A stretch of 64,000 nt of DNA from Thermoprotei archaeon (GTDB lineage Archaea; Thermoproteota; Thermoprotei; Thermoproteales; B15-G16), in the NCBI GenBank assembly GCA_003649205.1, contig QMRC01000001.1, forward strand, positions 1 through 64,000. The letters run 5' to 3'. Under the pieces are notes generated by a model that saw only the letters and a program-made list of their open reading frames with translations, made no database searches and was not told where the DNA came from. Both the position numbers and the translations under genes were made by a program. Shown here in pieces: positions 14,704 through 23,954 of the stretch. Position 1 is the stretch's first letter. Each line of letters opens with the position of its first letter.

Positions 14704-15909
14704 AAACCACGTAATGTACTTCAAGTACTCAACAACATCACCACACACCACTACATGGTGATTACCGCTAAGCTCATCAATTACAGTCCTCGCATCGTGA
14801 CCAGGTACCTCACAAAGTAACTGTGTCCTACAGATATCACTAAACATAACCCCGCTCGCTACACCACGTACCTTCATAACATATACATCACTACTATCCT
14901 CATCAACTCTCACAAGAGTGTACGTACCTAACCCCAATCTACCTCCTACACTAATTGGTTTACCTGTTTCAAAGTGAGGTAGCAATACAGCATCCTCACA
15001 GAGGTTTAGAGCAATAGTACAGTGAGCTAAAGCAAGTAAGCCACCTCGAATACCACAGACATTACATACCCAACCTGGTCTACCAGTCAGCTCCGTAGCT
15101 ACCTTTACCGGAATATACGTAGTGAGATCACCTTCACAGAGCGCAGTACATCCTTCAGCTAGTAGTAGAGCAATTACGACACAGGGAGTTACCCCGAATT
15201 CATCAATGAAGTTAAAGCAGTCAATTGTTACAGCACCACATCTCCTCTCCTTCAGTAACTTAGTGATAGCTCGATAGTGTAGGTATAGTTCTCGAACTAT
15301 ATCACCACTAATGCCTTGAAGTTTAACAAACGTAGCGAGTCTAGTGCTGAATACTCTCGTACTCTCCTCATCTACATTAGATCTAACTTCACGAGCGAAA
15401 TCCAAGTACTCGTTAAGCTTCACCTTCACAACTTCAATACCTAAGCGCTCGAGTAGGGGTGGTTTCCTAGGTACTGAATCACCTATGTACAGCACCCTAT
15501 CGTGGTAACACGGTAGTAGTCCCTGCAGACCCCTACAGATACGTACCAGTGACTTAGCTACATCATCTACTGAGTTTGAGTGAAGGAGTAGACACATGTT
15601 CCTCAATCTGGACTTAAGTGTGAGTGCTGATGGTAGGCTATTGAGGCCGTAGTGAGCTACTGCAACTACCTTCCTCCTGGTTTTCTCAGCTAGATTCTGA
15701 GCTAATCTAGCTGTTCCTCCAGTTAATAGCAGTAGCAGTATTAGGTCGTATCCACGTACCTTCTCTAAGTTGATATCCTTCTCATCTAGTACCAATTGGT
15801 GGAATTCTATTCCTAGTTCTCGAAGTCTAGATTTAAAGAGGTGGAGAAGTTTTAGGTATGTGCTAGGATCATGTTTTCTAGATGCTATCGGTACCGCTAT
15901 TACCCTCAC
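14671..15909 (-). CDS. L-fucose/L-arabinose isomerase-like protein
   Basis: TGGT, IDCF, CEGD, AHCTI, HFETG, CRTQ, GNHHVV. Confidence 0.75.
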   Translation of the reverse strand: MRVIAVPIASRKHDPSTYLKLLHLFKSRLRELGIEFHQLVLDEKDINLEKVRGYDLILLLLLTGGTARLAQNLAEKTRRKVVAVAHYGLNSLPSALTLKSRLRNMCLLLHSNSVDDVAKSLVRICRGLQGLLPCYHDRVLYIGDSVPRKPPLLERLGIEVVKVKLNEYLDFAREVRSNVDEESTRVFSTRLATFVKLQGISGDIVRELYLHYRAITKLLKERRCGAVTIDCFNFIDEFGVTPCVVIALLLAEGCTALCEGDLTTYIPVKVATELTGRPGWVCNVCGIRGGLLALAHCTIALNLCEDAVLLPHFETGKPISVGGRLGLGTYTLVRVDEDSSDVYVMKVRGVASGVMFSDICRTQLLCEVPGHDARTVIDELSGNHHVVVCGDVVEYLKYITWFLDARLVEYVE

Positions 15910-21925: not shown

Positions 21926-23566
21926 GTGATTTCTCGGAAGCTTCTAATTGCGATTATTCTCGTAATAATTCCTGTTACAGTGATTGGTCTGTACCTATCA
22001 TGTAAGGCTACTAGTGTTAGTGAGGAAATCATACCGAAGGTACCTACTTATGAGGTTACGAACTACATTGCTCTACTCAAGATCGTAGGCTCCATTGCTA
22101 ATGAGACACAGGTATGGGATTTACTGACTAAGATAAGGTTCCTCAAGTCCTGTGAAGAGGTTAAGGGTGTTGTACTGTACATTGACTCTCCTGGTGGTGT
22201 TGCTGCGTATGTTCAGGAGATATACCTAGCAATTAGGGACTTAGATAGCTGTAAACCTGTTGTTGCTTACGTTAGCTCAATGGCTCTCTCAGGTGGGTAC
22301 CACATTGCTGTTGCTGCGAGGAAGATTATTGTTGCTCCTGCGTCAATGATCGGTAATGTAGGTGTTATTGGTTTCGTTCCTCCAAAACCAACACCGAGAG
22401 TAGATGTCCTTGAGACAGGGCCACTGAAGCAAACTGGGTTAACTAGGAGCTCAGTTGTTGAAGCTATAAAGAAGCTACTTGATGAGTTCGTTAATGCCGT
22501 AGTGAGTTCACGAAGAGTAACTATACCGATTACGGAGCTTGCTAGTGGGAGAATATTCATTGGTCTAGATGCTGTTGAGTATGGACTGGCAGACATGGTT
22601 GGTTCGATATTTGATGCTGTGGAGGAAGCAGCGAAATTAGCAGGTGTCACAGAGTACAGAGTTGTATCGTGTGAGGAACTCATGGAGAAAGTGCAGACAG
22701 AAAGGGTAGAGGATCAGTGTGAGGAGATCTCTACTGACATCATTAAGTCAATCAGACAAGCACTAGATAGAGGGCACGTAATGTTCTACATCTATGTACC
22801 ACCGAGTAGAGTACATGAACTAGGTACTGAATTGGTTGCTACAGAAGGTCTAGATGTAGTCTCAACTAAGTACAGTTGGAGAAGCAGTTCAGAAGGGAAG
22901 ACTGTAGTCATAGATCTAGCACATACCACCTCCCTATACCTAGATGAGGTAGAGCCTCTCATAAAGTATCTACTCAGTAACAACGTTACAGTACTGTACC
23001 TACTCAATACCAAGTACATAGATACCATACTCGAGAAAGCACAGGCATACATCGTACTAGCTCCAACAAAGGTCTATAGCTACGATGAGGTTGTTAAGTT
23101 GAGGAGATTTGTTGAGAAAGGAGGAAAGCTACTCCTAGTAGCTGATCCAGAGCGAGGTAACACACTAGCAATAAACACTCTAGCATCAACGTTCAAGATA
23201 CAGTTTAGTACAGGCTACCTATACATACCACCATACAGCATTGAGAATCAGACAAATTACCGAGATGTAATTGGTGAGGTAGCTCAAGAACACGAGATCA
23301 CTAAGGGTATTACCAAACTACTCCTCCACACAGCAACCTACATACAGCTAGGTACAGACTACATACCCCTAATCAAGGTAAGCGCCTACTCAACAACCAA
23401 CTGGAAGAGAGGTGAGTACGTAGTCATGGCAGTATCGAAGAACGGTAGAGTAGTAGCTCTAGCAGACTTATCACCACTAGAAACCGCATACGTAAGTGAA
23501 TTCGATAACGAGAAACTACTACAGAACGTAGTGAAGTTCCTAATGAGTAATGAGGCAAAGACTTAA
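21926..23566 (+). CDS. S49 (SppA-like) peptidase fused to a C-terminal GATase1/DUF4350-like domain
   Basis: TM anchor, IDSPGG, ALSGGY, GPLK, GRIFIG; C-terminal VIDLAH...FVEKGGKLLLVAD...FDNEKLLQN. Confidence 0.8.
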   Translation: MISRKLLIAIILVIIPVTVIGLYLSCKATSVSEEIIPKVPTYEVTNYIALLKIVGSIANETQVWDLLTKIRFLKSCEEVKGVVLYIDSPGGVAAYVQEIYLAIRDLDSCKPVVAYVSSMALSGGYHIAVAARKIIVAPASMIGNVGVIGFVPPKPTPRVDVLETGPLKQTGLTRSSVVEAIKKLLDEFVNAVVSSRRVTIPITELASGRIFIGLDAVEYGLADMVGSIFDAVEEAAKLAGVTEYRVVSCEELMEKVQTERVEDQCEEISTDIIKSIRQALDRGHVMFYIYVPPSRVHELGTELVATEGLDVVSTKYSWRSSSEGKTVVIDLAHTTSLYLDEVEPLIKYLLSNNVTVLYLLNTKYIDTILEKAQAYIVLAPTKVYSYDEVVKLRRFVEKGGKLLLVADPERGNTLAINTLASTFKIQFSTGYLYIPPYSIENQTNYRDVIGEVAQEHEITKGITKLLLHTATYIQLGTDYIPLIKVSAYSTTNWKRGEYVVMAVSKNGRVVALADLSPLETAYVSEFDNEKLLQNVVKFLMSNEAKT

Positions 23567-23609
23567 TAACCCACAAGACACAGTTCAGAACCGCCCGAGA
23601 GGGGGGAAT

Positions 23610-23738
23610 CCCGGTACCCCGGCCATAGCCGGCGGGTCCCACCCGGTCTCATACCGAACCCGGAAGTTAAACCGCCGGCCGCCGTCGGGAGTACTGGGGT
23701 CCGCGAGGCCCCGGGAAACCGCGGTGCTGGGGGCCGGG
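23610..23738 (+). rRNA. rrf: 5S rRNA (stand-alone; ends approximate)
   Basis: GGCCATAGC...CACCCGGTCTCATACCGAACCCGGAAGTTAA...GTACTGGGGTCCGCGAGGCCCCGGGAAAC...TGCTG are archaeal 5S conserved elements. TATA (acttaataa) at about 23561-23569. Confidence 0.95.
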
Positions 23739-23860
23739 CTCTAGCCCTCTCGGGCTCTAAATCAAACTCCTAACTGCTTCTTCCACTAACTCCTCCTGTA
23801 CGTCACTGCTGTAGGTGTTGACGTAAACTTTAAGATATACACACTTGTTGACACTTTAGA

Positions 23861-23954
23861 GCCCCGGTAGCTCAGCCTGGTTAGAGCGCCGTCCTGGTAA
23901 TGTCGGCAGCCAGATAGACGGAGGTCCCGGGTTCAAATCCCGGCCGGGGCTCCA
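23861..23954 (+). tRNA. tRNA-Thr(GGT) with 16-nt canonical 37/38 intron (23900-23915)
   Basis: CCGTC-CT-GGT-A|ATGTCGGCAGCCAGAT|A-GACGG; CTGG/CCAG central helix; CCA encoded. Confidence 0.93.

Follow-up and report, generated by a model that had tools for sequence, protein, structure and literature searches.

Bulge-helix-bulge (BHB) processing is established for the precursors of archaeal 16S rRNA and 23S rRNA, for tRNA introns and for the permuted SRP RNA of Thermoproteus. The formation of archaeal 5S rRNA ends is, to our knowledge, poorly known and differs between lineages. In the available parts of the respective papers, 5S maturation is assigned to tRNase Z in H. volcanii (PMC7714728), to cuts at an A/U-rich motif in M. 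maripaludis (PMC10515664) and to FAU-1 in the Thermococcales (PMC7758197).

The SRP RNA of Thermoproteus tenax is the nearest precedent for the locus described here. According to the accessible text of PMC4731332, a 23-nt leader and a trailer form a BHB in this RNA, and cleavage of this BHB by a recombinant heterotetrameric endonuclease and joining of the ends give a stable circular RNA that is functional. For ribosomal RNA, BHB excision and circularisation are described for 16S and 23S, "but not 5S rRNAs", in the accessible text of PMC12918454. Circular 5S has been seen at a low level by circRNA-seq in S. solfataricus, S. acidocaldarius, H. salinarum and P. abyssi (PMC3326292; PMC12558985; P. 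abyssi as cited in 10.64898/2026.03.23.713588; each source as far as it was available). The available sections describe the S. solfataricus circles as low-level and not validated by RT-PCR, with their role left open (PMC3326292), and those of H. salinarum as having variable ends, for which degradation was suggested (PMC12558985). A 2026 preprint states, in its accessible part, that 5S circles, if confirmed, would form "in absence of BHB motifs" (10.64898/2026.03.23.713588). An earlier, sequence-only reading of the present locus had held that BHB processing is not the standard description for 5S; this agrees with PMC12918454 and the preprint, the available text of which names 16S and 23S only. 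No further report of a BHB at 5S or of a circular pre-5S was found in the literature searched, the coverage of which leaves out most subscription journals.

Here, we describe a 5S rRNA gene from a Thermoprotei archaeon that is bracketed by a canonical BHB. It was found in a 64,000-nt stretch of DNA, which was analysed as a whole and is called the window in the following.

Results

The window contains a single Rfam match to 5S rRNA (RF00001, positions 23615-23735 on the + strand, E = 3e-15), which covers model positions 1-120 and scores 79.6 bits (full model) against a curated gathering threshold of 38. It is the only 5S gene in the entire assembly (2.07 Mb, 31 contigs), and no 16S gene was found in these 31 contigs. 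Upstream of the 5S lies an S49-peptidase/NfeD-like gene (21926-23566, assigned by Pfam), and its stop codon overlaps a TATA-like box, cttaataa (23562-23569, + strand), that was read from the sequence. G23593 is 24 nt past the last base of this box. From this spacing, we infer that cttaataa is the TATA-like box of a stand-alone 5S unit. The sequence-only reading had placed the transcription start at the beginning of the stem, that is, at G23593, and the spacing makes this plausible.

Most 5S genes of two sister families have no leader, and helix I starts 20-24 nt after their TATA box. In these genes, helix I opens with a 5-6-bp extension that corresponds to the inner helix of the window described below. 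By homology with them, the mature 5S should extend from about 23609-23610 to about 23738-23739. On the 3' side, the sequence has no T run between the 5S and the trailer, and none after the trailer before about 23789. Because no T run separates the 5S from the trailer, the trailer is probably transcribed, with transcription reading through it.

Two open reading frames overlie the 5S gene, one of 64 aa on the + strand (23550-23744) and one of 72 aa on the - strand (23424-23642). They are not likely to be real genes and can be regarded as mechanical ORFs on a G+C-rich RNA gene. Independent public contigs match 23514-23664 and 23641-23948 with 0 differences. The 5S region is also covered by DNA contigs of other strains or species from four sequencing runs; one such contig (run X4) is 92.6% alike and ends at 23609. 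Elsewhere in the same assembly, contig C3 (291,428 bases) is its own reverse complement with 0 mismatches, and the hinge is at a tRNA-like sequence near 145.7 kb. This perfect palindrome is almost certainly an assembly artefact that doubles every feature on C3.

The sequences flanking the 5S gene pair with each other, and the coordinates that the sequence-only reading had given for the helices and bulges are all correct (all elements are on the + strand). The outer helix, h, is made of ten Watson-Crick pairs between GCCCGAGAGG (23593-23602), the first base of which is the predicted transcription start, and CCTCTCGGGC (23746-23755). The central helix, H, has four pairs (G-U, G-C, G-U and G-C) between GGGG (23603-23606) and CTCT (23739-23742). 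Two bulges of 3 nt each, AAT (23607-23609) on the 5' side and AGC (23743-23745) on the 3' side, flank the central helix. The inner helix, h', pairs CCCGG (23610-23614) with CCGGG (23734-23738) and is an outer extension of 5S helix I, with U23615-G23733 as a possible sixth pair. CCCGG is the counterpart of the first five to six 5S bases in those relatives in which the promoter sits directly in front. The strands run in the order h-H-B-h' (5') and h'-H-B-h (3'), which is the right order for a BHB and matches that of the neighbouring tRNA intron. With a central helix of exactly 4 bp, 3-nt bulges on opposite strands and helices flanking on both sides, the structure corresponds to the hBHBh' type as defined in the available text of PMC4731332.

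Three units of 8 nt make up the trailer, GGGCTCTA / GCCCTCTC / GGGCTCTA (23736-23759, + strand). The first and the last (23736-43 and 23752-59) are exact direct repeats of each other, which hints at an origin by local duplication. A mobile element or repeat was ruled out, as the outer-helix 11-mer GCCCGAGAGGG and its complement have a single occurrence in the genome. A K-turn was likewise ruled out, since the pairs that follow the bulge are Watson-Crick C-G and not sheared G-A. The idea of the 5S as an intron of a host RNA was rejected because, counted from the predicted start, just 16 nt would be left for the 5' "exon".

A tRNA gene (23861-23954, + strand) is located 100 nt downstream of the 5S. 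It has a 16-nt intron (23900-23915) at position 37/38, with the BHB CCGTC-CTGG-taa / CCAG-ata-GACGG. By eye, the gene encodes tRNA-Thr with anticodon GGT, which ARAGORN misreads as a 4-base anticodon. A separate TATA-like box, ctttaagata, precedes the gene by about 26 nt. Only cuts after the second base of each bulge leave a 7-nt anticodon loop in this tRNA, and we therefore took this as the cut rule. The cuts that had been proposed for the 5S before this comparison, AA/T and AG/C, obey the same rule; they correspond to 23608/23609 and 23744/23745. Cleavage at these positions would excise a 136-nt pre-5S (23609-23744, + strand), with the junction G23744-U23609 if the ends are ligated. The predicted 5' cut is at most one base from the 5' end expected from relatives, and the predicted 3' cut is 5-6 nt beyond the expected mature end (CUCUAG).

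The 5S stretch is unusually stable, with a fold z of -3.6 (0 of 200 shuffles were as stable). The energy of the leader-trailer duplex is -28.2 kcal/mol, which ranks second among 202 5S loci with a median of -5.35. We scanned both strands of the whole genome for the 3-4-3 geometry with spans of up to 300 nt. The strict scan (outer helix >= 8, inner >= 4) resulted in 578 matches, nearly all of which were A/U- or G-U-rich. A scan with looser helices gave 36,884 matches, and 56 were left when at least eight G-C and at most three G-U pairs were demanded. The top two have 18 and 15 G-C pairs, and the third, a tRNA T-arm, has 12. The 5S motif is the one with 15 G-C pairs and is thus the second-best GC-rich BHB in the 2.07-Mb genome.

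Once the helices are given, the 3-4-3 register is expected by chance in about 2% of cases with uniform bases and in 5.7% when the two 7-nt linkers are shuffled; the register is weaker evidence than the helix itself. The unconstrained MFE structure of the 5S stretch adopts a neighbouring register, with an 11-bp outer helix followed by 3 bp. The competing pair, G23603-C23745, extends the outer helix and leaves a 2-nt bulge. In the nearest-neighbour model, the BHB fold is above the MFE by 4.1 kcal/mol for the 5S, 1.9 kcal/mol for the tRNA intron and 2.2 kcal/mol for the twin unit described below. The gap of 4.1 kcal/mol counts mildly, not decisively, against the BHB reading.

The best BHB of the genome belongs to a second unit at C1:356182-356331, on the same contig and about 292 kb beyond the window. 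This twin unit reads GGGGCCGGTA-CACG-aag-CCCGTGGGC ... GCCCACGGG-CGTG-agt-TACCGGCCCT: the central helix is CACG/CGTG, the bulges are AAG and AGT, and the outer and inner helices measure 10 bp and 9 bp. The first paired base follows the end of a TATA-like tttatttt by 24 nt. The enclosed RNA is approximately 120 nt long and structured (fold z = -5.9), and no Rfam match at E <= 1 was found for it. SRP RNA was ruled out as its identity, as the SRP RNA is intact and collinear elsewhere in the genome. The RNase P type T model gave weak matches only, on a contig other than that of the twin unit. Two of the 62 genomes of the order have the twin unit, namely the source genome and the same-genus genome G001, at 95% identity. 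Between these two, the helices are identical and the promoter region is almost so, with two changes just before the helix; one substitution is found in the 3' bulge. A C/D-box-like sRNA, below the Rfam threshold, lies directly 3' of the twin unit (L129:650-704, where the twin unit is L129:483-632).

That one cassette of promoter, 10-bp helix and BHB is shared by two unrelated RNA genes makes the enzyme reading likelier than coincidence. The genome contains two genes of the tRNA-intron endonuclease family PF01974, in the regions C1:212095-212352 and C5:54768-55022 (ORFs of 193 and 181 aa; scores of 106.9 and 75.6 bits), and one RtcB gene (PF01139, 611.8 bits). The presence of two PF01974 genes fits a heterotetrameric crenarchaeal endonuclease, with the subunit roles deduced from gene number. 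For this type of splicing endonuclease, the most relaxed BHB recognition is reported in the accessible text of Plagens et al. (PMC4731332).

The comparison with relatives covered 205 5S loci (30 from the order, 13 from pattern scans, 74 more from the order and class, and 90 from a phylum sample). Across these 205 loci of class and phylum, the best enclosing BHB is that of the window, and an equivalent motif was not found in any other locus. When a loose BHB test was applied (outer >= 3, inner >= 4, adjoining helix I), 6 of 201 loci passed, versus 1.67 +/- 1.3 after flank shuffling (maximum of 6 in 200 shuffles). Four of these six are the window and three members of a sister genus, g4. The full motif was seen in one metagenome-assembled genome. 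No 5S was found in the same-genus genome G001 (71% complete), in which the homologue of the downstream gene is on a 1.6-kb contig without a 5S. Scans with a 23-nt 5S word retrieved five loci from genome contigs and eight from metagenome contigs; all are from other lineages, and none has a leader-trailer helix. Neither these scans nor the genomes of the order yielded another 5S of the same family.

All 13 genomes of g4 have a 4-bp helix and a 3-nt 5' bulge at the exact position of those in the window. The bulge is AAA in 12 of them and ATA in one. The flanks read (G/A-rich 4-mer)-AAA-CCGAGG on the 5' side and CCTCGG-(4-mer)-A/T-rich on the 3' side. The 4-bp helix is 92% paired with compensatory changes, and one of its pairs occurs as GC (7), AU (2), CG (1) and GU (1). 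In the alignment, pairing amounts to 99% for the inner helix and 100% for helix I, and the covariation score is higher than in 500 of 500 shuffles and in every slid control. With 44% of its pairs formed, the outer helix is at chance level. The sequence-only reading had proposed covariation of the flanks in relatives as a check; in g4, the central and inner helices covary, and the outer helix does not go along with them. As the TATA box precedes the 4-mer by 22-23 nt, transcription in g4 probably begins at the 4-mer, that is, at the central helix.

Two closely related g4 loci (L112 and L113) have a GGG insert on the 3' side, between the inner and the 4-bp terminal helices; in these 2 of 13 genomes, the AAA bulge becomes a 3x3 internal loop. 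In another g4 genome (L029), the leader is longer and the hBHBh' is complete, its outer helix being GGG/CCC. Judged by sequence comparison, what the window and g4 have in common is the central helix, the 5' bulge and helix I. This common part could be a relaxed substrate with one bulge, or it could be just a bulged extension of helix I.

Long leader-trailer helices can exist for other reasons, as is evident from L215, a locus of another family (G196:C12, 5S at 14922-15042). Its 20-bp unbroken leader-trailer helix has no bulges and, with -32.5 kcal/mol, is the strongest of 202; in its sister genome (L216), the helix is only about 8 bp. BHB-like matches in helix I of L089, L090, L141 and L160 were rejected, as they result from register sliding within a continuous helix that contains G-U pairs. 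The candidates in L154 and L207 were also rejected; they are A/U- or G-U-rich and absent from sister genomes. The 5S of L104 (G013:C1, 1600268-1600388) lies between the arms of a perfect inverted repeat of 10 bp, GAGAGGCCTT/AAGGCCTCTC. We discarded this repeat as a BHB-type stem, since its 5' arm is between the TATA and the expected start and its 3' arm is missing in the sister genome L125. In families f21 and f27 of the phylum sample, the 5S matches measure 137-139 nt versus about 120 and have lower scores (for example, G153:C18:6894-7030, G188:C20:5645-5783, G132:C5:32217-32355 and G209:C15:12358-12496). These 5S genes may carry inserts.

Discussion

On balance, we lean towards a pathway in which the approximately 163-nt 5S transcript is cut at the bulges by EndA and closed by RtcB to a 136-nt ring, which is then opened and trimmed. 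A primary transcript of approximately 163 nt would start at or beside G23593. Its 17-nt leader and 17-nt trailer would pair to form the canonical hBHBh' at the base of helix I, and the two-subunit splicing endonuclease would cut after the second base in each bulge (23608/23609 and 23744/23745). RtcB would join the ends to give the 136-nt circular pre-5S and would also join the leader to the trailer, with a small hairpin as the by-product. In the ligated ring, helix I would be closed by the 7-nt loop CUCUAGU. The extra CUCUAG would either be trimmed after the ring is reopened or be kept in the loop that closes helix I. That the stem is an EndA substrate had been proposed by the sequence-only reading. 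The anatomy fits this proposal in every testable respect, and two EndA-family genes, an RtcB gene, the twin unit, the precedent of the T. tenax SRP RNA and the covarying central helix with its 5' bulge in g4 speak for it; the part that does not carry over is the outer helix, which is not conserved in g4. Points against it are the occurrence of the motif in a single genome, the gap of 4.1 kcal/mol to the MFE, the 2-6% chance of the register, the BHB-free helix of L215 and a 3' cut 5-6 nt beyond the expected mature end.

The main, though less likely, alternative is that the flanks extend helix I as a lineage-specific clamp at high temperature and are never cut by EndA. The ends would be kept in a mature RNA of approximately 160 nt or nibbled by exonucleases, and the bulges would be irregularities or protein contacts. 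The sister genus g4 is in line with this, as it conserves a terminal 4-bp helix and one 5' bulge at the predicted start without the outer helix. So are the unbroken 20-bp extension of L215, which also begins near the predicted start, the MFE of the window's RNA, which is not in the BHB register, and the helix I extensions of relatives, which already range from 5 to 10 bp. However, a clamp is expected to be a perfect helix, and what we see instead is a 3-nt bulge on each strand, with exactly 4 bp between the two and in the orientation of the enzyme. The same design recurs in a second, unrelated RNA gene, the twin unit. A 5S of 163 nt would also be unusual, given that 200 of the 205 loci are without a comparable extension.

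It is quite unlikely that the stem serves the processing by a nuclease other than EndA (for example, an RNase E/G-like enzyme of the FAU-1/RNase W type, or 3' trimming, as others have proposed for archaeal pre-5S elsewhere) and resembles a BHB incidentally. This would leave the perfect BHB of the twin unit unexplained. Known archaeal 5S maturation does rely on other enzymes, namely tRNase Z, cuts at A/U-rich motifs and FAU-1, but these systems act on A/U-rich or tRNA-like flanks, whereas the 5S flanks here are G+C-rich and helical, with no such element visible. A by-product of chance or assembly, that is, an 8-nt duplication that happens to complement the leader and has no role and is perhaps untranscribed, would agree with the exact GGGCTCTA repeat in the trailer of three 8-nt units and with at least one artefactual contig (the palindromic C3) in the same assembly, but it is very improbable in view of the independent public contigs over 23514-23664 and 23641-23948 with 0 differences, the 10-bp perfect helix and register, which are very unlikely by chance, and the lack of a terminator-like T run ahead of the trailer.

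The EndA/RtcB pathway can be taken one step further. The 5S might stay circular in the ribosome as the working molecule, with helix I capped by CUCUAGU, and the cassette might be a general route to circular stable RNAs in this lineage, with the twin unit as the second example. We consider this extended version unlikely; if true, it would make the 5S rRNA proof against heat and exonucleases.

A BHB around a whole 5S, as identified here by computation in one uncultured lineage, would add a fresh variant to a mechanism that is already known. Reports of faint 5S circles go back to 2011 and name no mechanism; a 5S with a canonical BHB offers one exact, testable junction. The BHB-bracketed 5S would extend the "excise and circularise" route of EndA and RtcB to the third rRNA, and it is relevant to the recent observation that 23S rRNA can remain circular in ribosomes. 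Together, the 5S, the twin unit and the Thermoproteus SRP RNA suggest that, in archaea of the Thermoproteales type, the machinery of tRNA splicing serves as a general means of producing circular stable RNAs.

The locus can be placed next to four described situations. The predicted ring and the 5S circles reported earlier both span the whole 5S; no BHB is reported for the earlier circles in the available text of those papers, whereas the motif in the window is defined and predicts one exact junction. The neighbouring tRNA intron (23900-23915) has the same motif and cut rule, and the excised part is expected to circularise in both. In the tRNA, the flanks become the product and the excised part is thrown away, whereas in the 5S, the excised part would be functional and the flanks waste. 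In the 16S/23S route, as here, a leader-trailer helix surrounds the whole rRNA with the BHB a few bases outside the mature ends, and EndA and RtcB are proposed to act in both, with later trimming or reopening. The 16S/23S stem is part of an operon precursor, however, whereas the 5S stem would belong to a monocistronic 163-nt transcript. The SRP RNA genes of T. tenax and T. uzoniensis are, like the 5S, stand-alone non-tRNA genes of the same broad lineage with a BHB formed by leader and trailer (PMC4731332, as far as its text was available). In these SRP RNA genes, the sequence order is circularly permuted and ligation is required for function to be restored, according to the same part of that source; the 5S, in contrast, is collinear, and a circle is not needed to put its sequence in order.
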